Source: an uncultured Mollicutes bacterium (GTDB lineage: Bacteria; Bacillota_I; Bacilli_A; RFN20; CAG-826). Taken from it: DNA of 64,000 bases. Each line of letters opens with the position of its first letter. The first letter of the stretch is position 1. The stretch is taken from the NCBI GenBank assembly GCA_900539595.1, contig UQCQ01000001.1:251284-315283 (forward strand), written 5' to 3'. The translations under genes and the position numbers were made by a program. The notes below the pieces were generated by a model. That model did no database searches. It was given only the letters and a program-made list of their open reading frames with translations, and had not been told where the DNA came from. Shown piece after piece: positions 2,498 through 38,756 of the stretch.

Positions 2498-3513
2498 TTT
2501 TTAAAATCCATCCAGTGGTCGATTTTCCAGTTGGGATCCACGCCTAAGTTCAAGGGAGCGAAGACTTTCATTTCGTACAGCTTTTCGGCGACTTTCGCGA
2601 TCATCGCGGCGTTATCCGTCGTGCACCAAAGTGGTGGAATGATCAACTCAATGCCAGTGCCTGCAAGTTTTTCTTTCATTTGTGCACGTAAATACGAATT
2701 GGCAGAAACTCCACCAGCCAAAATCACTTGCTTAACATTGAAATCTTTAGCGGCCATCAACGATTTTTCTACAATCATGCCGATGGCAACATCTTGGAAT
2801 GAACGGGCCATATCATCGACACTAACAGGAGTTCCCTTCATTTTTAGGCTATTAACGAGGTTAATCACGCTTGTTTTTAAGCCCGAGTAGGAGAAATCGT
2901 ATTTTCCGTCCGGAGAAGCAGGCACCGGAAGGTGGTAAGAATGGGTACCGAGTTTTGCGTGTTGATCGATTGGCAATCCACCGGGATAGGGAAGGCCTAA
3001 CACACGAGCCACTTTGTCGTAGCATTCTCCAACCGCGTCGTCTTTGGTTTCACCTACAATAGTGAAATCCATATGGTCTTTCATAATAACCAACTCGGTA
3101 TTGCCGCCACTAACAACCACGCAAAGTAACGGGAAATGGAATTCGCCCGCATATTCGTTGGCGTAAATGTGTCCTGCCAAATGGTGAACAGGGATTAACG
3201 GCTTTTTATAAAGCATGGCCAGCGTTTTTGCCGCCTGTAAGCCAACATGCAAACAGCCAATAAGCCCAGGCCCGCGAGTAACGGCAAAGGCATCGATATC
3301 ATCTAAGGTCAATCCTGACTCATTCAAAGCCTGAGTCAAACACACCGTGATATTTTCTGTATGGAGACGGGATGCGATTTCAGGCATGACCCCTCCAAAT
3401 TTCTCATGAACGGCAATCTGGGTTGCGACAACATTGGAAAGCAATTTTCCGTTGTCCGTGATTGCCACAGCCGTCTCATCACAAGACGACTCAATTGCAA
3501 GAATCTTAGCCAT
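2494..3513 (-). CDS. tsaD: tRNA N6-adenosine threonylcarbamoyltransferase TsaD (Kae1/Gcp family).
   Basis: MAKILAIESSCDETAVAI...GVSANSYLR matches the conserved TsaD N-terminus and actin-like fold motifs. It overlaps the upstream tsaB-rimI stop by 8 nt. Confidence 0.9.
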   Translation of the reverse strand: MAKILAIESSCDETAVAITDNGKLLSNVVATQIAVHEKFGGVMPEIASRLHTENITVCLTQALNESGLTLDDIDAFAVTRGPGLIGCLHVGLQAAKTLAMLYKKPLIPVHHLAGHIYANEYAGEFHFPLLCVVVSGGNTELVIMKDHMDFTIVGETKDDAVGECYDKVARVLGLPYPGGLPIDQHAKLGTHSYHLPVPASPDGKYDFSYSGLKTSVINLVNSLKMKGTPVSVDDMARSFQDVAIGMIVEKSLMAAKDFNVKQVILAGGVSANSYLRAQMKEKLAGTGIELIIPPLWCTTDNAAMIAKVAEKLYEMKVFAPLNLGVDPNWKIDHWMDFKN

Positions 3514-4558
3514 TGATCAACGACCTCACCATATACACCGCGTCTTCCCCGTCATCGTAATAAGCATGCTTGGTTGTGACAGGTTCAAACTTATGTCTTT
3601 TATAGAATTTTTGAGCACGAACATTGGATACGCGAACTTCCAAAGTCGCATATTCCACAGGGTCGGATTTCGATTCACAATCCTTCAGCATTTGGCCGAT
3701 AAGGCGATTGCCAATTCCTTTGGATCTGAAGTTTTCTTTGACAGCAATTTGAGCAATCGTACAAGAGTTAAAAGTGATGTAGAAATCAATCATCCCAACA
3801 ACCTCGTTATCCACGACGGCGCAATAAAGATAAGCAACAGGATTTTCGTTCATTTCGAATAGAAGCGCTTCACGACCATAAGGATGTTTGAAAGCTTCCT
3901 GTTCAATGGCAAGAACCGCCTCGACATCGCTAGGCATCATTTTACGGACAACGGTCTTGAATCGACCTTCATCATAATCATCTTTCAGATAGATGGGACG
4001 AGCGCCGAGAGGCTCTTCGCAACGATATTCAGGTTTTGCAAAGTAAGCCAAGTTAGAAATAACGGGGTTTTGCAAGGATTCAAGACCTAAATAAGCCACG
4101 TCCCCACAAACGGAATAATCGGGATGTTGGTGAATGAAATCCATGACTTCTGCGTTAGTTTTAATGCAGTCTTGCACGTTTTTTTCACTATTGTATACAG
4201 CAAAATAGGACCGTTTCCCTCTCGCGTTCATCAAGCAGATGGATGGATGTCCAATTTGTTGCAAAACCTCAAGGGAACTAACTAAATAGAGAGGAATGTT
4301 AAGGGCAAAAGAAATGGTTTTTGCAATCGTTAATGCGATGCGAACACCCGTATAAGAACCCGGTCCTTTTGAGGCTACAACACCATCGATATCTTCTTTT
4401 TTAATGGCGAGTTTCGACATCAATTTGTCGATTTCATCCACCATGAATTCGCTTTGTTTTTGCCACGCTTCATAGACGATAGATCCAAGAATTTCCTCGT
4501 CTTTAGCAAACCCAACAGCAAGGTTTTTATCACTAGAATCAAGCAAGAGATTGAGCAT
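3506..4558 (-). CDS. tsaB-rimI: Fusion protein. The N-terminal half is TsaB (YeaZ-like t6A partner). The C-terminal half is a RimI-type GNAT N-acetyltransferase.
   Basis: The N-terminus MLNLLLDSSDKNLAVGF...SKGPGSYTGVRIALTIAK is TsaB-like. The C-terminal ~150 aa (MMPSDVEAVLAIEQEAF...QIAVKENFRSKGIGNRLI...YKRHKF) carry GNAT motifs. Gene order tsaE - tsaB/rimI - tsaD matches the Firmicutes ydiBCDE cluster. Confidence 0.8.
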   Translation of the reverse strand: MLNLLLDSSDKNLAVGFAKDEEILGSIVYEAWQKQSEFMVDEIDKLMSKLAIKKEDIDGVVASKGPGSYTGVRIALTIAKTISFALNIPLYLVSSLEVLQQIGHPSICLMNARGKRSYFAVYNSEKNVQDCIKTNAEVMDFIHQHPDYSVCGDVAYLGLESLQNPVISNLAYFAKPEYRCEEPLGARPIYLKDDYDEGRFKTVVRKMMPSDVEAVLAIEQEAFKHPYGREALLFEMNENPVAYLYCAVVDNEVVGMIDFYITFNSCTIAQIAVKENFRSKGIGNRLIGQMLKDCESKSDPVEYATLEVRVSNVRAQKFYKRHKFEPVTTKHAYYDDGEDAVYMVRSLING

Positions 4559-5024: not shown

Positions 5025-5075
5025 AAACCGCGGTGATTATACACCCTTTGAACAACACCGAAAGAAAAGCAAGAA

Positions 5076-5642
5076 CTAGACGTGGCGTTTTGGCGTCAAA
5101 ACTGGAAGATTTTCACTCAAAAATTTCTGATATAGGCACTCGATTTCCGAATCGATGAATGGGAAATTGCGATGGTCGATCATTTCTTTAACCTGCGACA
5201 TCGATTTTTCAATAGCCATGGATAAATCCTTGGGGTAGCCGTAAGTTTGGATGTGGCGGGCGTATTCGTTCTCGTCGAGGGTACGTTCCACGCCGTCTGG
5301 ATAGAGTTTTACGTCCAAGTCGTAATCGATGTATTTCAAAAATCCATTATCGTAAAGGGTCGGAGAAGCAATATTGACGTAATAGCAAATTCCCTTGCCC
5401 TCTTTGAACATGGCAATCACATTCATCCAACGTTTTTTATAAAGAAGGAAAATCGCGTTCTCCTTCGTCATCCATTTACGCCCATCGCTTTCCGTGACAA
5501 GGCTGGCTTTAGATGCCAAAGCCCAGTATTCGTCGGTTTCTTCCACCAAATAAGCCGGCGACCATTGCCGATGCAATTTGCCGTCATGTTTGTACGCCTG
5601 GACTTTAATCCAGCGCGCGAATCTCGGATCAATTTCGTTCAT
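5076..5642 (-). CDS. DUF402-family protein (nucleoside tri/diphosphatase Ntdp/FomD-like).
   Basis: MNEIDPRFARWIKVQAYKHDGKLHRQW... resembles DUF402/Ntdp N-terminal conservation; about 188 aa. Confidence 0.55.
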   Translation of the reverse strand: MNEIDPRFARWIKVQAYKHDGKLHRQWSPAYLVEETDEYWALASKASLVTESDGRKWMTKENAIFLLYKKRWMNVIAMFKEGKGICYYVNIASPTLYDNGFLKYIDYDLDVKLYPDGVERTLDENEYARHIQTYGYPKDLSMAIEKSMSQVKEMIDHRNFPFIDSEIECLYQKFLSENLPVLTPKRHV

Positions 5643-5720
5643 AAAGTATACCTAGCCAAGGTGAATATCACCTTACTCGCTATGAATTATAACGCATAAA
5701 CCGCCTTTGTATTTGTAGAT

Positions 5721-5748
5721 AATAAAAAAGCCATCCATTAAGGATGGC
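5721..5748 (-). terminator. Rho-independent terminator downstream of the membrane-protein gene.
   Basis: Hairpin GCCATCCTTAATGGATGGC followed by TTTTTTATT on the minus strand. Confidence 0.5.
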
Positions 5749-5759
5749 GAGAGAACGGT

Positions 5760-6896
5760 TTAGTCCCGATCAATCTTGGAGATGCACTCCGCGATTTCGA
5801 GAAAGAGCTTCATTTGGGGTTTATAGGCTTCGACGTAACCAGGATTAAAGGGTTTATCGTTAGGAAGAACCATCAACGTGTCCTCGTATCCCAAGGCCAT
5901 GTAGGTTTTACCCGGTTGGATGGAGATTGCGACGTCAACCAAGAGTTTGGAAGTATGGATTTGTTTTAACAGCGATTCCAATTCTGGAGTAATGAAACGA
6001 CGATTTTCTTTCGCTCCATAGATGGCGTATTGCTTGTTTTTGGAGAGTTGGTTGAGTTCAGGAAGAACTAGAGGCGGCAATGCTCTCTTATTGCCCCGGA
6101 AATAAATGACTAACCCGCCCTCAGACAAGGGAAGAGAATTGGTGGAACGAAGATATTTGCCAACAAAAACAGTTTGGAGGGCTTTAGCGGTATCTTTTTG
6201 GGCTGCCATGTCGCACAAAGAGCATTCCACACCTTGATACGTGAAAGTGATGTTATCGCGGCTTCCAATATGCTTGGCTCCTGGATAGAGTCCGCAAGCT
6301 TCCACTTCGGACGCATCGATTTTCGCATCGATGTCTCCGTGGACATTTTCAACGGGAAGGCCATCGAAAACATAGTCGTTCACATTCGAATAATAGGAAT
6401 TGAAATAGGCGCTGATTTGGGCCCGGTTCTTTTTTCTTTGGAAGATGCCGTAAATCGCGATTCCAGCGATGCCGACCCCCGCGCAAATGGCGGCGACGAT
6501 CAAGGTCCACTTCGATTTCTCCTTTTCATCTTGGATCACGAAATAGGGAATAATGTATCCCACAACAATCGCGACCAAGGTTCCAATGGAAATGGCGATC
6601 TTGCCCGTGTTCCATTTCTTGTATTCGTGATGCCAGAGAATGCGGGCGTCTTCGATGTTCTTCAAACGGGGATCGCTATATTGATAGGTTGCCGCGTCTT
6701 TGATTTCATCTTCCGGCTGAGGTTCCGGTTCTTCTTCCGGCTCGGGTTCGGGTTCCGGTTCGGTTTTTTCTTCTACGACCGGTGCAGGTTTTTTGGCGTC
6801 GACAAATTCGTCATTGCCGTAAATATCTTCCTTTTCCAGCGGAACAGCCGTCTCGACTTTTTCTTCGGGGGTTTCTATTTTCTTTTCGTCTTCCAT
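5760..6896 (-). CDS. Hypothetical membrane protein. It has an acidic Glu/Pro-rich N-terminus, two TM helices and a C-terminal globular domain.
   Basis: The N-terminus is EPEPEPEPEEEPEPQPEDE low complexity. There are two hydrophobic helices (IAISIGTLVAIVVGYIIPYFV, LIVAAICAGVGIAGIAIYGIF). The C-terminal ~230 aa domain contains Cys (GVECSLCD). No assignable family. Confidence 0.6.
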   Translation of the reverse strand: MEDEKKIETPEEKVETAVPLEKEDIYGNDEFVDAKKPAPVVEEKTEPEPEPEPEEEPEPQPEDEIKDAATYQYSDPRLKNIEDARILWHHEYKKWNTGKIAISIGTLVAIVVGYIIPYFVIQDEKEKSKWTLIVAAICAGVGIAGIAIYGIFQRKKNRAQISAYFNSYYSNVNDYVFDGLPVENVHGDIDAKIDASEVEACGLYPGAKHIGSRDNITFTYQGVECSLCDMAAQKDTAKALQTVFVGKYLRSTNSLPLSEGGLVIYFRGNKRALPPLVLPELNQLSKNKQYAIYGAKENRRFITPELESLLKQIHTSKLLVDVAISIQPGKTYMALGYEDTLMVLPNDKPFNPGYVEAYKPQMKLFLEIAECISKIDRD

Positions 6897-7050
6897 ATTT
6901 TTTCCTCGATAACCACGGAATTATAAAACAAATGGGCCAAGCACCCTATGAAAATGCGTAAACAAAACTTTTTCTTCACACCCTATTCTCCCCAAAACGA
7001 AAAAGAAGCCTCCATAGAAGCTCCTTTTCCGGTTAAGGGGATGAATGCGA

Positions 7051-21872: not shown

Positions 21873-21949
21873 TGGCGTCCCCGAGGCGATTCGAACGCCT
21901 GACCCCTTCCTTAGGAGGGAAGTGCTCTATCCAGCTGAGCTACGGAGAC
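21873..21949 (-). tRNA. tRNA-Arg (anticodon CCT).
   Basis: GTCTCCGTAGCTCAGCTGGATAGAGCACTTCCCTCCTAAGGAAGGGGTCAGGCGTTCGAATCGCCTCGGGGACGCCA. Anticodon loop CUCCUAA. Confidence 0.85.
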
Positions 21950-22778: not shown

Positions 22779-24263
22779 TTAAGGCCGATCGACCCGCCCC
22801 ATATAAAGAGGGAGGTCATTTCGATCGCGAATCACGTAAAGGAAGGGGGAATCCAGGTCAAAGGCTAGTCCGGTTATGGTGGGAGCCGCGGCCCCCGCCC
22901 CAATCCCAGACCATGTGATTGTTTTGGCCGTCGTTCCGCTTTCGTCCCAAAAAATGTGGTTCTTCTGCTTCGTTTCTTGGATATAAAGGGGGTCACCGTT
23001 CGATATTCCCGTTAACGGAGAAAGATCCCGCGAATACAAAGTTCCTAACCCCATGGAGGAAAAGAGGTCTTTAAACGATAAGGAACAATCCGCCTGGAAA
23101 CGGGGGAGAGCGACGTCGATGATAAATTGTGTGGTTTCTTCCCCGTGAATCGTCGCCACATATTTTTTCGATTCGTCTTCGACAAGAAAATTGGTTTTTT
23201 TGGCAATGGAAGCGATGTCCCCTCCCCTTTCTTTTGGAGTAATAAACTGCATGGAATATCCGCCTCCATAAGAAAGACGGAAGGAAAAATAATCCCCATA
23301 GTCATAAGCAGACCCCAAAAAGGAATGATGCATAAAGGGAACGACATAAGCTTCTCCAGAAGAGGGGTAGAAATTCTGTTTTTGCGTCTTGGAACCATCA
23401 AATCCCCAAGAGCCAAAGAAGTCCACCGTATTGAAAAGGAAGGCACGCGTATATTCGTCTACGAGAAAATCTTGGCTAGAAAGCACGTTTTGATTCACTT
23501 TCGAATTGACGATATCCACCATGAGATTGATGTCTTTGGCTTTCTCTAAATCCAACGAATAAGCCTCGCAATAAATGGAGGTCAAATAGTCTAAATAAGA
23601 ATCCTGAAACGTTTCTTTATGGTCCAAAAAGAACAATTGGTTCATTTCCACGTGGCTGGACCCTTCTTTCCCAGGATCGCGGTTGGACAGGAAGGCAGGT
23701 AGGAAGTTGGATTCCCTAGAAGAGGAATTTAAATGCAAAACTTCGTCCATTTTGGAAGAAAGAGAAGAATTCTTCACCCCATGTGAAAGGATATCGAGAT
23801 GGAGATACGCGCTTAAAGGACTGAAAAAGGTGTTATCCTCCTTGTTCAATCCCAAATAGGCTTCGTAAGAAAAATCACTCACCGCGTTTTGATAGTCTTT
23901 GCTCACCGGGCGAAGTTCCGAACCGCCAGGATATTCAAACGAATTCATGCGGCGGAACGTATCTTCGCGAATTTGTTGCTGCTCATGAAGAGAATAATTC
24001 CGCTGAACAGGATGATAATTGTTTTTGGTTTTAAAGCCTGCGATTAAAAATCCCGCCAAAGGAACGAGCGCCACCAAAGCAGCCGTCGCGGCCAAACTAA
24101 TCCCCGCAACTTTTGCCGCCGTTTTTCCATAATTAACATAAGGGCGTGCTTTCCCCGGGTTCTTCGGTTCGATTCCTGCTTTTTCTTTTAATAATCGCGA
24201 TTCATCCTGGAAAGAAAGTTTTTCCTCCACGGTGCATTTCAGGTTCTTCTTCCATTTTTTCAT
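22779..24263 (-). CDS. Membrane-anchored serpin-family protein. It has a short cytoplasmic N-terminus, one TM helix and an extracytoplasmic serpin domain. Putative anti-sigma factor.
   Basis: Serpin features include an N-terminal FFSPLSAYLHLDILSHG block. The C-terminal hinge/RCL and shutter region is DESGTTAKTITWSGIGAGAAAPTITGLAFDLDSPFLYVIRD...PLYMGRV. The TM helix is AAKVAGISLAATAALVALVPLAGFLIAGF. ATGA overlap with the upstream ECF sigma gene. Confidence 0.7.
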   Translation of the reverse strand: MKKWKKNLKCTVEEKLSFQDESRLLKEKAGIEPKNPGKARPYVNYGKTAAKVAGISLAATAALVALVPLAGFLIAGFKTKNNYHPVQRNYSLHEQQQIREDTFRRMNSFEYPGGSELRPVSKDYQNAVSDFSYEAYLGLNKEDNTFFSPLSAYLHLDILSHGVKNSSLSSKMDEVLHLNSSSRESNFLPAFLSNRDPGKEGSSHVEMNQLFFLDHKETFQDSYLDYLTSIYCEAYSLDLEKAKDINLMVDIVNSKVNQNVLSSQDFLVDEYTRAFLFNTVDFFGSWGFDGSKTQKQNFYPSSGEAYVVPFMHHSFLGSAYDYGDYFSFRLSYGGGYSMQFITPKERGGDIASIAKKTNFLVEDESKKYVATIHGEETTQFIIDVALPRFQADCSLSFKDLFSSMGLGTLYSRDLSPLTGISNGDPLYIQETKQKNHIFWDESGTTAKTITWSGIGAGAAAPTITGLAFDLDSPFLYVIRDRNDLPLYMGRVDRP

Positions 24264-24757
24264 GGCCGGTACTCCTTTAAAGAAGCCTTCGATTTTTCTC
24301 TCGCTCTTTTATAAATTCCGCGAGCACTGCTAGAAGAAGACAATTGATTCAAAGAGGCGATTTCTTTGAAACTCAGCTCAAAATACGCCCGTTCAATCAA
24401 GACATGGAATTCCAGCGGAGAAAGAAGATTCTCTAATTCTTCCCATAAGGTGGAATAAGAGGAATTAGACCCCCTGTCCTCTGTTAATTCCTCGCAAGAG
24501 GGGCTTTTTCTTAAGTCGTCTAGGGCAAGATTTTTAGCAATGGAACATAGCCAAGACACGAAAGACACGTCTTTGGAATAAGACGAATTCCATGCCTTCA
24601 GATAAGTTTCCATTACGATTTCCTGTGCCCTTCCTTCGTTACGAAGAATGGAAAAGGCGACGTATTTCAAAAGACGAGACGTCGCGTAATAAACGCCTTC
24701 TACGCATCGTTCGTTCTTTTGAAAGAAGCCACGTATGGCTTGGGAATCAATCTTCAT
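24260..24757 (-). CDS. ECF-type RNA polymerase sigma factor (sigma-70 regions 2 and 4).
   Basis: 165 aa. Region 2 (YLKAWNS...) and region 4 HTH (LSPLEFHVLIERAYFELSFKEIASLNQLSSSSSARGIYKRAREK). Confidence 0.75.
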   Translation of the reverse strand: MKIDSQAIRGFFQKNERCVEGVYYATSRLLKYVAFSILRNEGRAQEIVMETYLKAWNSSYSKDVSFVSWLCSIAKNLALDDLRKSPSCEELTEDRGSNSSYSTLWEELENLLSPLEFHVLIERAYFELSFKEIASLNQLSSSSSARGIYKRAREKSKASLKEYRP

Positions 24758-24825
24758 AGGCCTCCACTTATGTAACGAAGAAAAGGAGCAAAACGTTCGA
24801 AAAAATTATAAATTTCCTTTTGCAA

Positions 24826-24853
24826 AGAAAAAAGGCAGCCTTTTCGGTTGCCT
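24826..24853 (-). terminator. Probable terminator after tRNA-Pro.
   Basis: Imperfect hairpin GGCAACCgaaaaGGCTGCC plus TTTTTTCTTT on the minus strand. Confidence 0.4.
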
Positions 24854-24865
24854 TCAATGCTTAAG

Positions 24866-24942
24866 TGGTCGGAACGGCGGGGTTCGAACCCGCGACCTCC
24901 TGGTCCCGAACCAGGCGCACTACCAAGCTGTGCTACGTCCCG
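24866..24942 (-). tRNA. tRNA-Pro (anticodon CGG).
   Basis: CGGGACGTAGCACAGCTTGGTAGTGCGCCTGGTTCGGGACCAGGAGGTCGCGGGTTCGAACCCCGCCGTTCCGACCA. C1:G72 pair, typical of bacterial tRNA-Pro. Confidence 0.85.
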
Positions 24943-29827: not shown

Positions 29828-31249
29828 TTAAAACAAGCCGACGATATCTTTAATCGTAACGGCAATCATAAGACCAAACAACAAAACAAAGCCAATCGCA
29901 GAAACAATTCCCTGCACTTTTTGCGGCATCTTTTTCTTCGTGATTGCTTCTACGGCAGTTACCACGAGCTGCCACCCATCTAATCCAGGGAAGGGCAATA
30001 AATTGAAGAACGCCAGGTTAATGGAAAGCAAGCCAGCAAAATAGAAGATATGGCCCGCTCCACCCATGGCTTCGATTTGAGGCAAAGCCGCAGTCATGCC
30101 GACAAGGCCCGACATGTTTTTAAAACCATCGCTTGTAAACAAGGACGCAAAGCCTTTCACAATCGCTCCGCAAGCTTCCGGAACGTCTTTGGCCCACTGT
30201 TTCCAGGACCCGGTCCAACCGTTCCATTCCTTCAAAATAGCAACTTTCGCCCCTTCGGATTGAAGTTTCTTCCCCTGGTAAGTCACGCGGACTTTCGTAT
30301 CGATGCGATGGTTCCAGTAGGCATTCGAATAAGCGGATTCCGTTTCGCTTTCTTTTCCCGCTTTGGGGCCGCTTAAACGTAAATCAAGTTCAAAATAAGT
30401 TCCTTCCACGGAGAAGGAGAATGATTTGTCTTTGCCCCCTTCTACGCTTAAATCGGGAAGATGCTCGATGCCAACGGCCTTTTGGGCATCGGTGATGGAA
30501 GCATCCAAAGAAGAATCCACGGGATAAAGGCGGATCGAAGGTCCTAAATCATGTTCCTTGATTAACGTTTCCGGATAATAAATCGCCACATATTGGTAAC
30601 CTTCGTTATAAGGCCTCCCGTCTTTCGTGAATAAGGTGACATCGCTATCGACGATGCGGTAGCTCATGCCATTCAAGTTATACTCAGAAACCGTCAAATA
30701 ATAATCAGAAGGAGAAAGCTCTGCCTGTTTCTCCGATTCCACCTTTTCTAACAGGGAGCCTTCATAAGACATGGGCACGCTATCCACGGTTAAAGATTCC
30801 GCCTGCGCTCCCGGGGCAGCAACATAAGACACCGTTCCGCCATATCCCACGTAATAATTGGGGAAGGCAACGTCGGAAATATAAATTAAAACCAAGCCCA
30901 AGATGAAATTGACCGTAACTCCAGCTACAAGCACCAAACACTTTTTCCATTTGGCAATCGCATTCAAAGAACGGTCGGGAGAAGGCTCGACTTCACCATC
31001 GGGCACCGCCCCTTCTTCTCCGTACATGGATACATATCCGCCCAAAGGAATCGCGCGCAACGAAAAATAGGTTTCTTTCCCTTCTTTTCTTTTATGCAAA
31101 ATCGCAGGTCCAAAGCCAATGGAATATTCAAAGCAATACACCTTGAAGAGCTTTGCCATCCCCAAATGCCCTGCTTCATGCAAGGAAATCAATAATCCAA
31201 GAATGACGATGATGATGAAGATATTAAGAAGAATCATGTACCAGGCCAT
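29828..31249 (-). CDS. rseP: RIP metalloprotease RseP (site-2 protease).
   Basis: HEAGHLGMAKLF (HExxH) in the first TM. A PDZ-containing periplasmic insert. A C-terminal LDG motif (GLDGWQL). Start MAWYM, with GGAGG 8 nt upstream. Confidence 0.85.
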   Translation of the reverse strand: MAWYMILLNIFIIIVILGLLISLHEAGHLGMAKLFKVYCFEYSIGFGPAILHKRKEGKETYFSLRAIPLGGYVSMYGEEGAVPDGEVEPSPDRSLNAIAKWKKCLVLVAGVTVNFILGLVLIYISDVAFPNYYVGYGGTVSYVAAPGAQAESLTVDSVPMSYEGSLLEKVESEKQAELSPSDYYLTVSEYNLNGMSYRIVDSDVTLFTKDGRPYNEGYQYVAIYYPETLIKEHDLGPSIRLYPVDSSLDASITDAQKAVGIEHLPDLSVEGGKDKSFSFSVEGTYFELDLRLSGPKAGKESETESAYSNAYWNHRIDTKVRVTYQGKKLQSEGAKVAILKEWNGWTGSWKQWAKDVPEACGAIVKGFASLFTSDGFKNMSGLVGMTAALPQIEAMGGAGHIFYFAGLLSINLAFFNLLPFPGLDGWQLVVTAVEAITKKKMPQKVQGIVSAIGFVLLFGLMIAVTIKDIVGLF

Positions 31250-31253
31250 AGGG

Positions 31254-32402
31254 TTAACCTCCAATTTGTTGTTCCACGAATGCGCGAGATGCTTTATCGG
31301 CTTCTTGCATTTCTAAATAAGTAGGATGAGCGGTGCAAGGCAAGACGTCAACGGCTTGCTTCACCAATTTTTCTATCGAAAGGAAGGGGATACGGTGGGC
31401 GAGGAAAGCATAAACCGCCGCCTCATTCGCCCCGTTTAGCACCGCGCGGCTTGTTCCGCCTTTTTCAAATGCCTTCAAGGCAATTCCCGGCGCGGGGTAA
31501 CGTTCCGCGTCAAAGGGATGGAAATGATAGGGCCGCAGTTCTTCCAAGGATCCTACATGTTCTAAAGAGAAATTCACGTTGGATTCATATAAGGCATAGG
31601 CGATGGGGCCATGCATATCGGGCTCAGACACATCCGCGAGCAGCGTTCCATCTTTTAAGCGAAGCAAAGAATGGACGTGGCTTTCATCGTGGAGAATAAT
31701 TTTGGTCTTTTCTAACGGGAAATCGAAGAGAACCTTAGCTTCTAGAACCTCGAACCCCTTATTCATCATGGTTGCCGAATCAATCGTGATTTTGGCCCCC
31801 ATGTTCCAAGTGGGATGATGAAGGGCTTCTTCTGGGGTCACATTGGTTAATTCTTCTCGCTTTTTCGTTCGGAAGGAACCCCCGCTCCCCGTAATCCAAA
31901 TTTCATCCACGTCTTCTCGTTGAACCCGAGAAAGCAATTTGGCAATCGCCACATGCTCAGAATCAATGGGATAGATTTTTCCTTTTCCTTGAGCAATTAA
32001 ATCGCGAATCAAATCTCCGCCGACGACCAAGGATTCCTTGTTCGCCAAACAAAGAATTTTGTTTTCTTCTAGGCTGCATAAACTAGGGGCAAGACCCGCA
32101 AACCCAACCAAAGCGTTTACGACCATGTCGCAGCCACATTCCCGAATCAAGCAAAGCAATCCTTCCTCCCCGTAATACCAATGGAGATTAGGATAGGAAC
32201 GGGAATATCGTTCATAATCCTTCTCTTCCTGGACGCAGAGGAATTTCACGGAAGGGAAATCATGGAGAATGGAAGGAATCTTTTGAACTTGATGGCCCAC
32301 GGAAAATCCCACTAACCTAAAATGCCCCGCATCGTTGCGGAGAACATCCAAACTTTGCGTTCCAATGGAGCCACTGGCCCCTAAAAGACAAACTTTCCTC
32401 AT
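31254..32402 (-). CDS. dxr: 1-deoxy-D-xylulose 5-phosphate reductoisomerase.
   Basis: MRKVCLLGASGSIGTQSLDV... is the Dxr N-terminus. ATGA overlap with the cdsA stop. Confidence 0.9.
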   Translation of the reverse strand: MRKVCLLGASGSIGTQSLDVLRNDAGHFRLVGFSVGHQVQKIPSILHDFPSVKFLCVQEEKDYERYSRSYPNLHWYYGEEGLLCLIRECGCDMVVNALVGFAGLAPSLCSLEENKILCLANKESLVVGGDLIRDLIAQGKGKIYPIDSEHVAIAKLLSRVQREDVDEIWITGSGGSFRTKKREELTNVTPEEALHHPTWNMGAKITIDSATMMNKGFEVLEAKVLFDFPLEKTKIILHDESHVHSLLRLKDGTLLADVSEPDMHGPIAYALYESNVNFSLEHVGSLEELRPYHFHPFDAERYPAPGIALKAFEKGGTSRAVLNGANEAAVYAFLAHRIPFLSIEKLVKQAVDVLPCTAHPTYLEMQEADKASRAFVEQQIGG

Positions 32403-33508
32403 CGGAAGAAATTCCATCCATTCACCGTGAAGACGGCAAAAATCGACGCGTAAATCATGCAGAAGAGCAAAGAGTCCGCGCGATCCAATACACCCCCGTG
32501 GGCGCCGAGCACATGGCTATAATCCTTAAAGCCGTAATAACGTTTAATCATGGAAAACGTAAAATCGCCAAGGTTGGCAACTGGGGGCAACGTCAAACTC
32601 AAAATCAGCGGCATCCACCATTGACCGCTCGTTCCAAATATCTTCATGGAAGGCAACGCTTCCGCCCCATTCACATCGCAAATCATCAAGAAAGCAAAGC
32701 CAACGAGGGCTCCGCCAATCACACCGCCAACGAATCCTTCCCAGGTCTTATTGGGGGAAATGCGGGGGGACATATGGTGTTTGCCAAATAGCATCCCCAC
32801 AAAATAAGCGAACGTATCATTCATGTAGGTGGTCAAGACAATGAAAACAAAGAAGATCAAGGACTTCCAATATTTAAACATTGGGGAAGTTAGAATCTCT
32901 CCTTTTTGCGCTTCCGTAAGCACCTTGTCGTTAAAAACCATCGCATAAGGCACATAACGGCAGAAAAGAATCGCCTGAAAGCCAAGACCAATGATGAAAG
33001 TCATCGTGAAGAAATAGGTAACGTCTTGCCACGTGAAATCTTCATGAAGAATGGCGAAAAGAGCGTAAATGCCAAAGCAAGCCGCGATGCCATACCAAGA
33101 AACCCACGGCTGGGTAAAGTGGTTTTGAAGGCTCGGATACCAACTAGGTGCTTCAATCGAAGGCATGGTGGATTCGTCAAACATCGCTTTCTTTTCGAGA
33201 TAGGCGAGATAACTAGAGACATTGGATTTAATAACAAACCAGAACGTAAAGGCATAGATGGCAATGTAAGTGAAAACCCAGATGTACCATTTATATTTCT
33301 TTTGGGGAGCCTTAAGGACTTCGTAGGCCGCTATGCCCAAAAATACGGCGACAAAAGCAAACCAATACCAGCTACCTAAAATAATGCAGGGTAAGGCAAT
33401 GGCAATCAGGATCGCCGCAACAATAATGCGGTTCCCCATGCTTTTCTTTTTCTTTTCATCCAAAGGATTGATCTCAATGTGATGATGAGGTTTCTTCTCT
33501 TCACTCAT
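32399..33508 (-). CDS. cdsA: Phosphatidate cytidylyltransferase, with an N-terminal extension.
   Basis: Polytopic. C-terminal CdsA signature ...SMIKRYYGFKDYSHVLGAHGGVLDRADSLLF. Confidence 0.85.
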   Translation of the reverse strand: MSEEKKPHHHIEINPLDEKKKKSMGNRIIVAAILIAIALPCIILGSWYWFAFVAVFLGIAAYEVLKAPQKKYKWYIWVFTYIAIYAFTFWFVIKSNVSSYLAYLEKKAMFDESTMPSIEAPSWYPSLQNHFTQPWVSWYGIAACFGIYALFAILHEDFTWQDVTYFFTMTFIIGLGFQAILFCRYVPYAMVFNDKVLTEAQKGEILTSPMFKYWKSLIFFVFIVLTTYMNDTFAYFVGMLFGKHHMSPRISPNKTWEGFVGGVIGGALVGFAFLMICDVNGAEALPSMKIFGTSGQWWMPLILSLTLPPVANLGDFTFSMIKRYYGFKDYSHVLGAHGGVLDRADSLLFCMIYASIFAVFTVNGWNFFR

Positions 33509-34235
33509 TTTTTAACCCTCCATATCGTCTTGAACGGGCGTTAAATTCTTTAAGGCAATCTACAAAATCGTCATGACGGAAATCCGGCCACTTCGTCGAG
33601 GTGAACACAAATTCCGCATAGGCATTTTCGTAAAGCATGAAATTGGATAAGCGTTCTTCTCCCGAGGTGCGAATCATTAAGTCCACATCAGGGAGACCAG
33701 CCGTATAAAGGTAACTCTTAAACGTTTCCTCCGTTAAGTCCTCTAGATTCTTCTTTCCTTCCATGACGTCGCGCGCAAAGGCTTTAGATGCGCGGACAAT
33801 CTCGTCGCGACCGCCGTAATTAAGGCACACGTTGATCACCCAGCTATCATTGTTTTTCGTCCGTTCCACCGCTTGAAGGCACACTTCACGAGTTTGGGGA
33901 CGAATGCGACTTAAATCGCCGGAAATCATGATTTTGGTTCCAACTGAATCCAAATAATCGATTTCTTTCTGAAAGAATTCCTCAAGATAATCCATCAAAT
34001 GATCGATTTCTTCTTGGGGGCGATTCCAGTTTTCCGTAGAGAAGGCGTAGAAACTCATGACACGAATATTAAATTCGCGGCACGTTTCAAAGATTTCAAT
34101 GATGCGCTTGCACGCTTCGTGATGGCCAAAATGGCGAGCTAATCCCCGTTGTTTGGCCCAACGTCCATTCCCATCCATGATGAAGGCGACGTGGTCACAT
34201 TTTTTCGTTAGTTGAAATCCTTCTTTTTTTGCCAT
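33501..34235 (-). CDS. uppS: Isoprenyl transferase (undecaprenyl-diphosphate synthase).
   Basis: HVAFIMDGNGRWAKQRGL...ENWNRP...RTSGE.RLSNF motifs. Start at MAKKEGF; the upstream in-frame extension contains a TATAAT box. Confidence 0.85.
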   Translation of the reverse strand: MAKKEGFQLTKKCDHVAFIMDGNGRWAKQRGLARHFGHHEACKRIIEIFETCREFNIRVMSFYAFSTENWNRPQEEIDHLMDYLEEFFQKEIDYLDSVGTKIMISGDLSRIRPQTREVCLQAVERTKNNDSWVINVCLNYGGRDEIVRASKAFARDVMEGKKNLEDLTEETFKSYLYTAGLPDVDLMIRTSGEERLSNFMLYENAYAEFVFTSTKWPDFRHDDFVDCLKEFNARSRRYGGLKNE

Positions 34236-34318
34236 TGGAAGAATTATAAACGAGGAATCACAAGCGTGCATTAAAAAGGCAGGGCTATGCCCTGCCACAA
34301 AGGTTCAAAAAGAGGGAT

Positions 34319-34864
34319 TTAGATTGAAAGGATTTCGTCTTGTTTTTCTTTGACCATCGATTCAATGGTTTTGTTGACGGCATCCACTTCTTTTTGGAGG
34401 TCTTCTTCCACGCGGTCGCGATAATCATCCGACATGGAATCGTCGTCTTTTAGCATCGACAAGGTGTCGCGACGGACGTTACGGACGGCAACTTTGGCTT
34501 CTTCGCCAAGAGCTTTGGCCTTTTTGGCGATGTCTTTGCGGGTTTCTTCCGTCAAGGGAGCCACGACAATGCGAATGCCATCGGCTTCAATTTGCGGGTT
34601 CACGCCAAGGTTAGCGGCAGCAATGCCGGCGGCAATGCTTTTAATATCTTCGCGAGAATAGGGGCGAATGTAGAGCTGACGGGGTTCGGGACGGCTGATT
34701 TGGCAGAGGTCAACAATTGCCATGCGGTCCCCATAATAATCGCACATCACTCCGTTGAGCATCGCGGGGTTCGCTTGTCCCGAGCGAAGCTTATCCATCC
34801 CAACGCCTAAGTTTTTAACGGCTTTTTCAAATTCGCCTTTGGCTTCCATTACATATGCATCCAT
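34319..34864 (-). CDS. frr: Ribosome recycling factor.
   Basis: 181 aa, typical Frr sequence. Conserved position in the pyrH-frr operon. Confidence 0.9.
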   Translation of the reverse strand: MDAYVMEAKGEFEKAVKNLGVGMDKLRSGQANPAMLNGVMCDYYGDRMAIVDLCQISRPEPRQLYIRPYSREDIKSIAAGIAAANLGVNPQIEADGIRIVVAPLTEETRKDIAKKAKALGEEAKVAVRNVRRDTLSMLKDDDSMSDDYRDRVEEDLQKEVDAVNKTIESMVKEKQDEILSI

Positions 34865-34904
34865 GTTTCAGTTCTCCTTTATCTATGGTTTCTTATGAAT
34901 GATT

Positions 34905-35627
34905 CTATTCATCAATGACGGTCGTGCCAACCTTTTCTCCCATCAAAACCTTTTTGAAGGCTGCGGGGTCGTCCATCGAGAAGACGCGGATGGCAACGTG
35001 TTTTCCTTCTAGCATCGCTGCGGCGGACAAATCCATAATCGCGAGTTTGCGGGAAATCATCTCGGCTAAGCTAATTTGATCAATCTTTTTGGCATTCGGG
35101 TTTTTGCGCGGATCCGCGTCATAAACGCCATCCACTCCGTTTTTAGCCATAAGAATGGCATCTGCCCCCACTTCCAAGGCGCGGAGAGCAGCGCAGCTAT
35201 CCGTCGTGCAGTAGGGATTGCCCGTTCCTCCCCCGAAGATGACAACGATGCCATCATCTAAGTGAGCAATGGCTTTTCTGCGATAATAAGGTTCGCAAAC
35301 TTGGGGAATATTGATGGCCGACATCACGCGGCAAGGCAATCCTTTTTCCTCGATGGCGCTTTGGATGGCCAAGGCGTTAATCACGGTGCCAAGCATTCCC
35401 ATGTAATCGGCAGTCGAGGGCTCGATGCCGATTTTATCCGCAAGGCGTCCTCTCCAAATGTTTCCGGCTCCAACAACGATGCCGACGTCTACGCCAAGGG
35501 AGCGGATCATCTTGACCGTGTTGGCGATTGTCAGCAACTTCTCGTGGTCTAAAATCGTACTGTCTTTGTTATCCGCCAAAGCCTCGCCAGAAAGCTTGAG
35601 GATAACGCGTTTATAAATGGGTTCCAT
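34905..35627 (-). CDS. pyrH: UMP kinase.
   Basis: RVILKLSGEAL...GGGTGNPY...DGVYDADP motifs. Confidence 0.9.
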   Translation of the reverse strand: MEPIYKRVILKLSGEALADNKDSTILDHEKLLTIANTVKMIRSLGVDVGIVVGAGNIWRGRLADKIGIEPSTADYMGMLGTVINALAIQSAIEEKGLPCRVMSAINIPQVCEPYYRRKAIAHLDDGIVVIFGGGTGNPYCTTDSCAALRALEVGADAILMAKNGVDGVYDADPRKNPNAKKIDQISLAEMISRKLAIMDLSAAAMLEGKHVAIRVFSMDDPAAFKKVLMGEKVGTTVIDE

Positions 35628-35685
35628 AACTTCGATATTCTAATCAAATGAAACGCCCTTGAAAAGGAAAGAACCTATCGACAAT

Positions 35686-35711
35686 GAAAAAGCCCCCGCA
35701 TTGTTGCGGGG
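35686..35711 (-). terminator. Rho-independent terminator after tsf.
   Basis: CCCCGCAACAATGCGGGG plus GCTTTTTC on the minus strand. Confidence 0.5.
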
Positions 35712-35733
35712 ACCTGGTTTATTTAGACGTTAA

Positions 35734-36585
35734 TTAGTCTTCTTTGGCCGATTTGTCGACACCTTCGCCAACGAGGTAGCGAACGAAGGTAACAACTTTG
35801 GCACCCTTTTCCTTCAAGAATTGGGAGACAAGGAGTTTTCCGTCCGGATCCAAGGCGTAGGGCTTGGCTTCCAAGCAGTTTTCGCCGAGGCGGGAATCCA
35901 CTTTGCGTTGGGCAATCATGGCTTTGACGTTCTCGGGCTTGCTGGCAAGTTTCGGATCTTCGGCAACTTCCTTTTGAGCGATGGCGAGTTCACGTTCGCG
36001 GTCCGCAGCGGGAACATCGGCAAGGGTCAAATATTCCGGAGCGGCGGAGGCGATGGTCATGGCAATGCCACGGTTCGCTTCGCCGAGGTCTTTGGAGAGA
36101 ACCGCAAGAGCAGCGATCTTGCCGCCCATGTGGATATAGCTTCCGAAGGCTTCGCCATCCTTGAGTTCAAGGAAGGCATAGCGGCGGAGAAGGAATTTTT
36201 CGCCCATGGCGATGGTCGCTTCCGCGAAGAGATCCTTCGTGGCTTCTTGGGCTTCTTCCAAGGTTTTGCAGCCTTTGGCGAAGAGTTCGTCCATCACTTT
36301 GGCCGTGAATTCGTGGAATTTGTCAGAAGAGGAAACAAAGTCGGTTTCGCAGTTGATTTCAGCAACGACGGCCTTTCCTTCGCCGGTCTTGACGAGGGCA
36401 AGTCCTTCTGCAGCAACGCGGCCAGCCTTCTTAGCGGCTTTGGCGATGCCTTTTTCGCGGAGGATATCGATCGCTTTTTCGATATCGGCGTCCGCTTCGA
36501 TGAGGGCTTCCTTGCAGTTCATGAGACCCGCGCCAGTGCGGTCACGGAGCTCTTTGATTTGATCAATGGTAACTTTGGCAGCCAT
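35734..36585 (-). CDS. tsf: Elongation factor Ts.
   Basis: MAAKVTIDQIKELRDRTGAGLMNCKEAL... is the UBA-like N-terminus plus dimerisation core. TAATG overlap with rpsB. Confidence 0.9.
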   Translation of the reverse strand: MAAKVTIDQIKELRDRTGAGLMNCKEALIEADADIEKAIDILREKGIAKAAKKAGRVAAEGLALVKTGEGKAVVAEINCETDFVSSSDKFHEFTAKVMDELFAKGCKTLEEAQEATKDLFAEATIAMGEKFLLRRYAFLELKDGEAFGSYIHMGGKIAALAVLSKDLGEANRGIAMTIASAAPEYLTLADVPAADRERELAIAQKEVAEDPKLASKPENVKAMIAQRKVDSRLGENCLEAKPYALDPDGKLLVSQFLKEKGAKVVTFVRYLVGEGVDKSAKED

Positions 36586-37616
36586 TATTTGCTCTCCTTG
36601 GCTTCTTCAGCAGGGGCAGCACCAGCAGCGGTTTTGGCTTGTTCCGCGCGACGGGCTTGGAAACGAGCTTCGCGTTCAGCACGCATCTTGGCAAAGCGTT
36701 CTTCACGGGCTTTGCGGGCGGCGCGGAGAGCTTGGCGATGTTGTTCGGCGGCGATATCAGCAACACGGATGGCATCAGCCATGGTGGATTCGGGTCCTTC
36801 GTCCTTCACATAGGCGAATTCAGTGACACCGGCACGGGCTTCGACGACAGCGTCGGCGAGGACACCAACAATCAATTTGATGGCGCTGGTGGCGTCGTTG
36901 TTGGTCGGAATGGGGAAGTCGACGAGTTCAGGATCATCGCTGGTATCGCAGAGAGCGAAGACCGGGATGTTGAGCTTGCGAGCTTCAAGAGCAGCGTTCT
37001 TTTCGAGGGTCGGATCCGCGAGGACGATGGCCTGCGGAAGGCGACGCATTTCTTTCAAACCGCCAAGGTTCTTGTCGAGTTTGGCGTATTCTTTGCGAAG
37101 AAGAGCAACTTCCTTCTTGGGGAGTTTGTCCCAGGATCCGTCCGCTTGGGCGGTATCGAGGTCGCGGAGACGCTTAATGCGAGCCGCGATGGTGCGCCAG
37201 TTGGTGAGAGTGCCGCCGAGCCAGCGGTTGATGATGTAGAACGATCCAGAACGAACCGCTTCGTCGATGACGATTTGTTGGGCTTGGGCTTTGGTTCCGA
37301 CAAAGAGAACTTTTCCGCCAGCTTCAACGATGGCCTTCAAAGCGTTATAGGCAAGGATGGTGCGTTCGACCGTTTTGTTCAAGTCGATGAGGTAGATGCC
37401 GTTGCGGGCGCCGTAGATGAAACGGCCCATCTTCGGGTTCCAACGACGGGTTTGATGTCCGAAGTGAACTCCGTTTTCCAAGCACTTCTTGATCGTGATG
37501 ATCGGGGCGTTGGGATCGTGGAAGACTTCCGCCATATCAGCGGTTTCCACGGGTTTGGCTTCTTCAGCCGGTGCGACCGCTTCGGCGACCGCTTCCTGTT
37601 TGATTTCGTCACTCAT
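36585..37616 (-). CDS. rpsB: 30S ribosomal protein S2, with ~40 aa N-terminal and ~60 aa C-terminal extensions.
   Basis: The core is LENGVHFGHQTRRWNPKMGRFIYGARNGIYLIDL. GGAGG RBS 9 nt upstream of MSDEIK. The C-terminal tail is Ala/Arg/Glu/Lys-rich. Confidence 0.9.
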   Translation of the reverse strand: MSDEIKQEAVAEAVAPAEEAKPVETADMAEVFHDPNAPIITIKKCLENGVHFGHQTRRWNPKMGRFIYGARNGIYLIDLNKTVERTILAYNALKAIVEAGGKVLFVGTKAQAQQIVIDEAVRSGSFYIINRWLGGTLTNWRTIAARIKRLRDLDTAQADGSWDKLPKKEVALLRKEYAKLDKNLGGLKEMRRLPQAIVLADPTLEKNAALEARKLNIPVFALCDTSDDPELVDFPIPTNNDATSAIKLIVGVLADAVVEARAGVTEFAYVKDEGPESTMADAIRVADIAAEQHRQALRAARKAREERFAKMRAEREARFQARRAEQAKTAAGAAPAEEAKESK

Positions 37617-37793
37617 TTTGGTGACCTCCATTTGTTTATGCCTCCCTCGCTTCGAACCACTGACCACCAAACCCATTTTTAAGCCTGCTTCGGCCGGGAA
37701 GGAACACGGCGTGGAATCCGCGGGGTGCGTTTAGCCGTCAAAAAGACAGCGCGTGGATTATATCCCTTGCGTATAGGCGTATGCAAGAACGAA

Positions 37794-38756
37794 TTACCGA
37801 GAGGAACCGCCGCCGCGCTTTTCACCCGTCCGTTTTGGGAAGAATTGTTCGTACTGCTTCTTCATGTCTTCCGTCGTCAAATGGGTGTATACCTGCGTCG
37901 TATTGATGCTTTCGTGGCCCAGAAGTTCTTGAATTAAGCGCAAATCGGCACCGTTTTCCAAAAGATGGGTGGCAAAAGAATGTCGCAACTCGTGAGGATG
38001 AAGATCCAACGATAACCCCGTTATTTCTTCCACGTGATGCAAAATGTATTCAAGCCCGCGAACCGTAAGGGTTCCGCCTTGGGCACTAAGGAAAAAACTT
38101 TTGGGTCTTTGATGAGACACGGCAGGAGTCCATTTGGCAAGCAAATCAGGGCGCAATTCGCTGTAATAACGTTTCATCCATTTCATCGCGTTGATTCCAA
38201 ACGGAACCATGCGGTACTTCTTTCCTTTGCCGTAAACGCGAATCATGCGATTGCCATAATCGATGGATGAAGGCTCGAAATGAACGAGCTCTGAAGCGCG
38301 CATTCCCGAAGCATAAAGCAACTCTAAAATGGCTTGATCTCGCACCATCAAAGGGTCATCTCGTTTGGCATTTTCCTCTAACAATTTGTTCACTTGGTCC
38401 AAAAAGAGGGCATGGGGGTATTTGATTTCGGCCCTTGGAGCCTTTACATCACGAAAGGGATTTTTCGTAAAATGAGCCGCATCATGGATGCGCTGGTAGT
38501 CATAAAAAGAACGCAACGCGGAAAGGCGTCTTGCTAATGTTCTCTTCGATTCTCCTTTGGAGAGTTGGTCTTGGAGAAACATCAAAATCGTCATTTCCTC
38601 TACTTCGAAAATCGGAACTCCGATGGATTCCGAATAATCAAAAAAGGATGTGATGTCCCTCTCGTAATTGCCAATGGTATTGGGAGAATAATTTCGAGAG
38701 AAAAGAAGGTACTGGCTATAGGGCTGGAGTAATTCTTTCCACTTATTCTCGGCCAT
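37794..38756 (-). CDS. xerC: Tyrosine recombinase XerC/XerD family (CodV-like).
   Basis: The C-terminal catalytic region is HELRHSFATHLLENGADLRLIQELLGHESINTTQVYTHL. Sits in the conserved topA-trmFO-xerC context. Confidence 0.8.
   Translation of the reverse strand: MAENKWKELLQPYSQYLLFSRNYSPNTIGNYERDITSFFDYSESIGVPIFEVEEMTILMFLQDQLSKGESKRTLARRLSALRSFYDYQRIHDAAHFTKNPFRDVKAPRAEIKYPHALFLDQVNKLLEENAKRDDPLMVRDQAILELLYASGMRASELVHFEPSSIDYGNRMIRVYGKGKKYRMVPFGINAMKWMKRYYSELRPDLLAKWTPAVSHQRPKSFFLSAQGGTLTVRGLEYILHHVEEITGLSLDLHPHELRHSFATHLLENGADLRLIQELLGHESINTTQVYTHLTTEDMKKQYEQFFPKRTGEKRGGGSSR

Follow-up and report, generated by a model that had tools for sequence, protein, structure and literature searches.

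Which factor controls an extracytoplasmic function (ECF)-type sigma factor when the gene that overlaps its own encodes a membrane-bound serpin? This question is raised by a locus of an uncultured Mollicutes bacterium (assembly GCA_900539595.1, contig UQCQ01000001.1, positions 251,284 to 315,283), a stretch of 64 kb that is called the window in the following and to which, as a whole, the coordinates refer. On its minus strand, a gene for a 165-amino acid (aa) sigma factor is followed by a gene for a 494-aa protein, whereby the TGA stop codon of the former and the ATG start codon of the latter share the four nucleotides (nt) ATGA (CCGGCCATGAAAA; layout CCGGCC-ATGA-AAAA). This overlap had been described in a first-pass annotation of the window, and the called open reading frames (ORFs) and the junction are as stated there. 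The explanation that fits the locus best, and that we regard as reasonably probable, is a two-gene autoregulated ECF sigma/anti-sigma operon, in which the anti-sigma factor would be a type II (N-in) membrane protein with a serpin as its ectodomain. That the two proteins form a sigma/anti-sigma pair is, taken by itself, quite likely.

Sigma Genes Accompany Serpins With a Long Basic N-Terminus

The gene neighborhood was surveyed by calling ORFs in 94 loci in addition to the window, whereby sigma genes were recognized by iterated profile search and serpins by the family hidden Markov model (HMM). Collapsing at 90% identity yielded 49 non-redundant members. In all 34 loci in which the serpin has a long basic N-terminus, an ECF sigma gene lies directly upstream on the same strand (34/34), whereas an adjacent upstream sigma gene is present in none of the eight loci in which the serpin has a signal peptide or lipobox only (0/8; L003, L010, L026, L028, L029, L036, L048, and L058). 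Six members at contig edges cannot be scored, and the one exception, L068, which has a very AT-rich low-complexity tail, shows no sigma ORF within the available 301 bp upstream. The first-pass annotation had named such a neighborhood survey as a check of its proposal, and among the testable loci the outcome is strongly in favor of it. The pair recurs down to ~25% identity, and in 32 of the 34 sigma-linked loci the junction of the two genes lies between -14 and +5 nt, 17 junctions being 4-nt overlaps. In a neighbor-joining tree of the serpin domain, which is star-like and without bootstrap, the forms with a short N-terminus are found at ~5 separate positions among the forms with a long one. The association of tail and sigma gene therefore rests on several events, and this tree suggests repeated gain or loss of the link. 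The loci L067, L068, and L071 are very AT-rich, and their serpins carry Asn/Glu/Lys-rich low-complexity tails instead of the basic helix motif described below; these may represent a third architectural class.

The Sigma Factor Is Distant From Characterized ECF Proteins

By its sequence, the 165-aa protein is an ECF-type (group 4) sigma factor that is distant from every characterized ECF. It matches Pfam Sigma70_r2 (E=1.7e-10, 41 bits, cutoff 24) and passes the sigma70-ECF model TIGR02937 marginally (43.0 bits compared to a cutoff of 42.9), and a helix-turn-helix-like stretch (SFKEIA...ARGIYKRAR) was seen by eye. This agrees with an ECF protein that consists of regions sigma-2 and sigma-4 only, with the reservation that the TIGR02937 match is marginal and the match to region 4 is sub-threshold. 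The protein could be placed in no named ECF group and is not orthologous to a characterized sigma factor (SigW, V, X, M, and others): None of the NCBIfam equivalog models comes near its cutoff (26 bits compared to 190 for the SigV model), and the closest sequence relative in the PDB is SigW with E=0.0024. A word-indexed homologue search with the sigma factor gave four matches, of which three are from the same species, and is thus uninformative on sigma relatives without serpins. The sigma factor carries no extra regulatory domain, and no other anti-sigma candidate adjoins it.

The Serpin Is Preceded by a Basic Tail and a Single Transmembrane Helix

For the 494-aa protein, an AlphaFold2 model was calculated from an alignment of 88 family sequences (mean pLDDT 89.4, pTM 0.80). 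Together with hydropathy, the model bears out the topology that had been claimed earlier, i.e., an N-terminus of ~50 aa, one transmembrane (TM) helix, and a big extracytoplasmic domain. The N-terminus is assigned to the cytoplasm because of its charge (14 K/R and a net charge of +8 in residues 1-53) and because homologues have a signal peptide or lipobox instead; the relatives with a signal peptide or lipoprotein signal also place the serpin domain outside the cell. In the family alignment, the tail follows the consensus M-K-K-[LFW]-K-K-x-[LFIV]-K-x-[DE]-[LYF]-E-E-K, after which an F/D is conserved, and its helix is amphipathic with hydrophobic residues spaced i, i+4, i+8. The size of the tail, with two helices and ~45 aa, is what we take to be nearest to the short class II type of anti-sigma factors. 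We propose that residues 1-50 constitute the putative sigma-binding segment because the tail co-occurs with the sigma gene, the two genes are translationally coupled, neither another partner nor a regulatory domain of the sigma factor is at hand, and a parallel exists at the locus L029.

At L029, the gene of a related sigma factor, which is 32-35% identical to the serpin-linked sigma factors and thereby within their own spread, overlaps by ATGA with that of a 444-aa protein. The latter begins with a similar basic segment (MKRTEKQFKRYMEE...) and contains a TM helix as well as the Pfam domain RsgI_M (E=1.9e-21; pair at 5074-6965 of this locus, minus strand). The sigma clade therefore uses interchangeable anti-sigma ectodomains. 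On the level of sequence, the tail likeness between the serpin family and this RsgI_M protein (shared TEKQFK) is no more than suggestive. The RsgI_M protein has a long coiled-coil-like C-terminus, and its gene is located 2 kb from that of a serpin-family member with a signal peptide only (2989-4323, plus strand) on the same contig.

Within the TM helix, a proline (P68) is present that is kept in 61 of 87 family members. An N-in protein with a single TM helix and a helix-destabilizing residue, together with an M50 protease in the genome, corresponds to the layout of substrates of regulated intramembrane proteolysis. The TM helix is followed by a linker and a juxtamembrane helix (residues 92-100 in the model), where pLDDT is 67-76 at residues 71-100 and 92-95 at residues 101-120. 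The motif YSLxE..F..LN.I.YP of this juxtamembrane part is kept in members with a long and with a short N-terminus alike.

The Ectodomain Is a Complete Serpin With a Divergent Hinge

That the ectodomain is a complete serpin, as had been noted before, is confirmed. The Pfam Serpin profile (PF00079) matches residues 127-494 over positions 2-370 of 370 (E=9.6e-47, 160.4 bits, cutoff 27), and a Foldseek search of the model against the PDB gave 415 matches at E<=0.001, whereby the top matches listed are all serpins (TM-score (TMt) up to ~0.85, E down to 2e-27). Furthermore, FDLDSPFLYVI at residues 468-478 fits the C-terminal serpin signature pattern (PROSITE PS00284). Full profile, fold, and signature thus place the protein in the serpin superfamily.

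The hinge of the reactive-centre loop (RCL) has E at P17, G at P15, T at P14, A at P12, T at P10, and T at P8, but K at P11 and I at P9. Across the family, P17 is E in 85, P15 is G in 87, P14 is T in 79, and P10 is S/T in 85 of 88 members; Thr/Ser prevails at P8 and Ser/Ala at P6. The even-numbered positions, which face inward, are small. Positions P5-P1 are variable and show indels. Counted from P15, the RCL has the canonical length on the P side, which would place P1 near G457. This residue is followed by a semi-conserved S/A-A-A-P, and the five extra residues of the loop are on the P' side. From its composition, the Ala/Gly-rich bait GIGAG-AAAP would suit elastase-type enzymes.

In the AlphaFold2 model, residues 443-452 (GTTAKTITWS, P15-P6) form an inserted beta-strand with pLDDT ~95, and residues 454-461 are below 50. 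The best Foldseek matches are likewise loop-inserted serpins, including latent conserpin (5cdz) and latent antithrombin-dimer chains, cleaved serpin 42Da, vaspin, and CBG, as well as latent tengpin and PAI-1. The inserted hinge could be a family property or predictor bias. As a model result, the insertion suggests a loop that is well suited to become strand 4A and is no proof of a native latent state, on which the model is silent because the predictor cannot tell the metastable from the relaxed state. Overall, an inhibitory function of the serpin is plausible from its sequence.

The Sigma Operon Has a Candidate ECF-Type Promoter of Its Own

Upstream of the sigma gene, an element with the sequence GAACGTTTTGCTCCTTTTCTTCGTTAC (24798-24772) was found, i.e., GAAC-N17-CGTT, which ends ~7 nt before a GGAGG ribosome-binding site (24765-24761). 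With its AAC-type -35 and CGT-type -10 blocks, GAAC-N17-CGTT shows the arrangement that is classic for ECF promoters. The pattern GAACGTTT-N13-CGTT has a single match without mismatch in the 64-kb window, namely the one upstream of the sigma gene; with two mismatches, 15 matches were counted compared to 8.2 +/- 3.0 expected, which is not above chance. This two-block element occurs at the same position upstream of the sigma gene in relatives that are 30-50% identical and lie in unrelated genomic contexts. Other sigma subgroups have their own versions of the element, for example CGACAAAA...TTGTTTTAT and CGACGAAAA...TTGTATTAT, so that the element co-varies with the sigma subgroup. This is what autoregulation predicts. 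A generalized pattern, which was defined post hoc, matches 22 of 33 upstream regions, where 0.014 matches are expected per 180 nt, and the near-misses look like variants of it. No consistent element was found upstream of the serpins with a short N-terminus and of the L029 sigma gene. The best reading of these sequence patterns is that the sigma operon would be autoregulated from the GAAC-N17-CGTT element.

Attack by a Protease May Release the Sigma Factor

For the sigma/anti-sigma operon, the following course of events can be envisaged. At rest, the basic two-helix tail of ~50 aa would tether the sigma factor to the membrane. Outside, the serpin would serve as bait and inhibitor for gut serine proteases, which might be host pancreatic, neutrophil, or microbial enzymes, and attack on the RCL would lead to the irreversible stressed-to-relaxed change or to a covalent complex. 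The change of the ectodomain might then make the juxtamembrane part (linker or helix) accessible to site-1 cleavage, which signal peptidase, the attacking enzyme, or ambient proteases could carry out, comparable to the amphipathic-helix switch of RsiV. After that, the housekeeping M50 protease RasP, for which the genome provides the gene, would cut the proline-containing TM helix and free the sigma factor. Thus, the sigma factor would probably be released by regulated intramembrane proteolysis. Finally, it would transcribe its own promoter GAAC-N17-CGTT and thereby resupply the consumed suicide inhibitor/anti-sigma factor one-for-one. That the system is triggered by a protease attacking the serpin has, in our estimation, close to an even chance. 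The more specific idea that the stressed-to-relaxed transition acts as a one-shot transmembrane switch, in which RCL attack destroys the anti-sigma factor, frees the sigma factor, and has the inhibitor resynthesized, is put forward somewhat more tentatively.

Several observations weigh against this explanation. For the sigma factor, the match to Sigma70_r4_2 is sub-threshold (E=0.0073, 16.4 bits, cutoff 25.7), and beyond the promoter of the operon itself no target promoter was found in the 64-kb window. The first-pass annotation had suggested a search for anti-sigma N-terminal domains, and this turned out negative: When seven N-terminal segments of the family were compared to Pfam at E<=10, there was no significant match, and none of the known anti-sigma domains (class I ASD/zf-HC2, RskA, RsgI_N, RsiV_N) was recognized in the tail. 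The matches obtained were noise, including a weak one to DUF3379 over the TM region with E=0.005, which is below cutoff. An HMM of the cytoplasmic tails, run against all 1,992 ORFs called in the retrieved loci, found serpin-family proteins only and missed the RsgI_M protein of L029. In the hinge, P12 is I/A/V in 35/25/24 of 88 members and P11 is mostly K, unlike the canonical inhibitory hinge at P12-P9, and if the loop-inserted state of the model were the native one, the serpin would have to be non-inhibitory or latent. The entropy of the RCL is 2.79 bits compared to a domain mean of 2.33 bits, and residues 365-380 vary most, by which the RCL is ruled out as a hypervariable hot spot. Finally, a cut within the RCL alone cannot detach a serpin that is anchored via its N-terminus. 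Therefore, an additional site-1 step would be required and the signal would have to pass via the conformational change or the complex, which makes the coupling step hypothetical.

Alternative Explanations

Non-inhibitory serpins are well known, and the two proteins could form a sigma/anti-sigma pair with a serpin of this kind, be it a stably loop-inserted scaffold, a sensor of a non-protease ligand, or a bulky part that keeps RasP out until a site-1 protease of the cell removes it. The confidently inserted hinge strand of the model, the latent or cleaved state of its best PDB matches, the I/V at P12 and K at P11 of the family in place of an Ala-rich P12-P9, and the only moderate variability of the RCL would all suit such a serpin. 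However, the structure predictor is blind to the difference between native and relaxed states, and the near-invariant P17 E, P15 G, and P14 T with the small even hinge positions are the signature of a loop that inserts on demand. In addition, P12 in the protein of the window is the canonical Ala, and the relatives without a sigma gene, which have a signal peptide or are lipoproteins, resemble ordinary exported inhibitors. We therefore regard a non-inhibitory ectodomain as unlikely, though it deserves to be kept in mind.

It might also be that the sigma factor merely drives the expression of a membrane-tethered protective serpin, whereby the tail would be an anchor or sorting extension and the sigma factor would be controlled elsewhere. 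Such a role would agree with the tail matching no anti-sigma domain in Pfam and with the operon's own promoter being the sole one of its type in the window, and a dedicated regulator of serpin expression is known in Bifidobacterium, as far as the title of the report goes. It does not account for the distribution of the tail, which is found in 34/34 sigma-linked members and 0/8 sigma-less members with a signal peptide or lipobox, at several independent tree positions. Besides, tight translational coupling is typical for stoichiometric partners, the 165-aa sigma factor has neither a regulatory domain nor another adjacent anti-sigma candidate, and the related sigma factor of L029 is paired with an RsgI_M anti-sigma factor in the same layout, which together make this explanation rather improbable. 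That the genes are adjacent by chance or that an artefact of ORF calling is seen, for which nothing but the short length of the sigma factor speaks, has a practically negligible probability: It is already refuted by the survey, in which the pair with its junction was encountered at 34 non-redundant loci, and this in many samples and hosts. Moreover, the exact proteins of the window are present in NCBI, ENA, and Logan assemblies, and their clusters at 90% identity comprise 431 members for the serpin and 222 for the sigma factor, none of which is named.

Comparison With Known Systems

Among known systems, the pair of SigV and RsiV from B. subtilis, Enterococcus, and Clostridioides is a close precedent in that an autoregulated ECF sigma factor is combined with a single-pass N-in anti-sigma factor, as proposed here. 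RsiV is both anti-sigma factor and lysozyme receptor, and signal peptidase acts on it as site-1 protease, gated by a juxtamembrane amphipathic helix, before RasP cuts (PMC4183432, PMC5014341, PMC6066255). The 494-aa protein likewise has a conserved juxtamembrane helix, as well as a TM proline. In contrast, the ectodomain of RsiV is of the RsiV/DUF4179 type with lysozyme as ligand, whereas the serpin would presumably have a protease as ligand, the binding of which would be covalent and irreversible. Neither the sigma factor nor the N-terminus shows detectable sequence similarity to the SigV/RsiV pair. RsgI of the SigI/RsgI systems is modular as well: A short cytoplasmic N-terminus binds the sigma factor, and one TM helix and a juxtamembrane domain are followed by extracellular sensor modules, which are interchangeable. 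However, the 494-aa protein matches neither RsgI_N nor RsgI_M, and its partner is a 165-aa ECF sigma factor and not of the SigI type. The single-pass anti-sigma factors of the RseA/DegS/RseP and RsiW/PrsW/RasP cascades lose their ectodomain before the cut by an M50 protease, a gene for which is also present in the genome here. These cascades differ in that no site-1 protease gene is linked to the pair here, and in that its ectodomain has the fold of a protease inhibitor and is not a protease substrate domain.

With regard to serpins, the family members with a signal peptide or lipobox resemble the exported serpins of gut and oral bacteria, such as siropins, the serpin of Bifidobacterium longum, and miropin, which have no cytoplasmic tail and no sigma coupling, whereas both are present here. 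Where such serpins of host-associated bacteria have been characterized, they inhibit elastase-type proteases of the host as well as other serine proteases (PMC5127057, PMC8201313, PMC8233489). Compared to the known bacterial serpins, the hinge of the family is divergent (...G-T-x-[AIV]-K-[ST]-...) and a juxtamembrane helix is added at the N-terminal side. No PDB serpin reached the threshold used with phmmer (E<=1e-20). According to its title, as cited in PMC8201313, a study on Bifidobacterium breve describes a serpin operon whose expression is autoregulated via a two-component system (Alvarez-Martin et al. 2012). As far as can be told from this title, a dedicated regulator adjoins the serpin gene and expression is autoregulated as in the locus described here, but the histidine kinase would be the sensor and the serpin only the output, whereas here the serpin would be sensor and part of the switch.

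The first-pass annotation had remarked that no sigma/anti-sigma pair with a serpin sensor was known, and none was found in the searchable literature: A full-text search for serpins with anti-sigma or ECF sigma factors gave nothing relevant. In a phylogeny of the serpin superfamily, some prokaryotic serpins were sorted as "membrane anchored" and sigma factors were not mentioned, and the main text of the ECF re-classification makes no mention of serpins.

Genomic Context of the Locus

The features of the locus are summarized in Table 1.

Table 1. Features of the sigma-serpin locus and its surroundings in the window.
Feature	Coordinates	Strand	Evidence or remark
ECF-type sigma gene, 165 aa	24260..24757	-	ORF call
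Membrane serpin gene, 494 aa	22779..24263	-	ORF call
Cytoplasmic N-terminal segment, aa 1-50	24114..24263	-	AlphaFold helices aa 2-15 and 22-28, pLDDT 74-83
Single TM helix, aa ~54-76, mid-helix proline P68	24036..24104	-	Hydropathy maximum; AlphaFold helix 45-75
Extracytoplasmic linker aa 77-91 (lower confidence) and juxtamembrane helix/extension aa 92-121	23901..24035	-	AlphaFold, motif
Serpin domain, aa 122-494	22782..23900	-	Pfam PF00079, AlphaFold, Foldseek
Hinge and RCL, aa 441-468	22860..22943	-	E441 P17, G443 P15, T444 P14, A446 P12, then GIGAG/AAAP bait
ECF-type promoter candidate	24772..24798	-	-35 GAAC 24798-24795, 17-nt spacer, -10 CGTTAC 24777-24772
tRNA-Pro	24866-24942		Upstream of sigma gene
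tRNA-Arg	21873-21949		Downstream of serpin gene
Lipoprotein-like ORF, 198 aa	22073-22669	-	Between serpin gene and tRNA-Arg; signal peptide ending LVSC
M50 site-2 protease (RasP/RseP type)	29828..31264	-	Peptidase_M50, E=1.2e-46; 5.07 kb from sigma start
Housekeeping block polC, M50 protease, dxr, cdsA, uppS, frr, then XerC-type recombinase and GIDA-family protein	29828-38756	-	

The pair had been described as flanked by two tRNA genes, and both were found, with one extra ORF on the serpin side. This lipoprotein-like ORF has no match in Pfam or NCBIfam, and it is not present at the equivalent position in the syntenic relative L001. The position between tRNA genes had been taken to suggest that the pair is accessory, which turned out to be weak. 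The order polC, tRNA-Pro, sigma gene, serpin gene, and tRNA-Arg is kept in L001, where the serpin is 45% identical, and the GC content of the locus is unremarkable. Therefore, a recent arrival of the pair between the tRNA genes and an accessory island flanked by them are ruled out. In more distant lineages, the sigma-serpin pair is found in different genomic contexts. Directly after the tRNA-Pro gene, a hairpin (GGCAACC-GAAAA-GGCTGCC) with a T-run is located at 24827-24852 on the minus strand, which was seen by eye and unreported by the consensus scan. It looks like a terminator that shields the sigma promoter against upstream transcription.

An RseP-type protease gene ~5 kb away had been pointed out as a possible site-2 protease. 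The gene is indeed present, but its proximity reflects housekeeping synteny and not membership in the module, since it lies within a frr-uppS-cdsA-dxr-M50-polC block, an order that we take to be the conserved Firmicute arrangement around rasP. At the sigma-serpin loci of other, non-syntenic lineages, the uppS-cdsA-dxr-rasP-polC neighborhood is absent. A functional linkage by proximity is thus ruled out, and RasP is a reasonable candidate for the site-2 protease because the genome encodes it and not because it is near. Unusually, there is no proS between the M50 gene and polC in the block.

Distribution of the Family

A profile search was carried out against 1.84 billion representatives, clustered at 50% identity, and ~95 clusters scored >250 bits. 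Among the first 100 representatives, 79 have an N-terminus of 35-61 residues, a TM helix, and a serpin, and 10 have a signal peptide or lipobox only; the architecture with the long N-terminus is common to ~80 of the clusters. Tandem serpins, i.e., proteins of 740-1154 aa with two or three serpin stretches (P0090, P0102, P0104, P0107, P0110, and others), occur among the distant matches. With the 494-aa protein, the word-indexed search yielded seven relatives of the same length. The genome matches are all metagenome-assembled genomes of uncultured gut Bacilli from humans (Nepal, Hadza, HGM), horse faeces, and goat rumen. From a metagenome scan, 80 loci were kept, the record names of which include human-gut and pika assemblies.

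Significance

Pairs of ECF sigma and anti-sigma factors are a major route of envelope signaling in bacteria, and it is the ectodomain that sets what each of them senses. In the searchable literature, no anti-sigma factor with a serpin as its ectodomain has been reported, so that the sensor domain would be new while the type of module is known. If the proposed operon holds true, it would be the first case of a serpin as a receptor in bacterial signal transduction, and if it works, it would offer synthetic biology a compact genetic switch that responds to proteases. In inflammatory bowel disease, pancreatic proteases and neutrophil elastase are raised, and the species of the window is common in human samples, as seen from the 431 members of its serpin cluster. 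The family would then amount to a means of protease sensing that is widespread among uncultured Bacilli in the gut of humans and livestock, and it would give gut bacteria a direct and mechanistically distinctive way to detect serine proteases of the host or of competitors and to replace an inhibitor that is consumed stoichiometrically.

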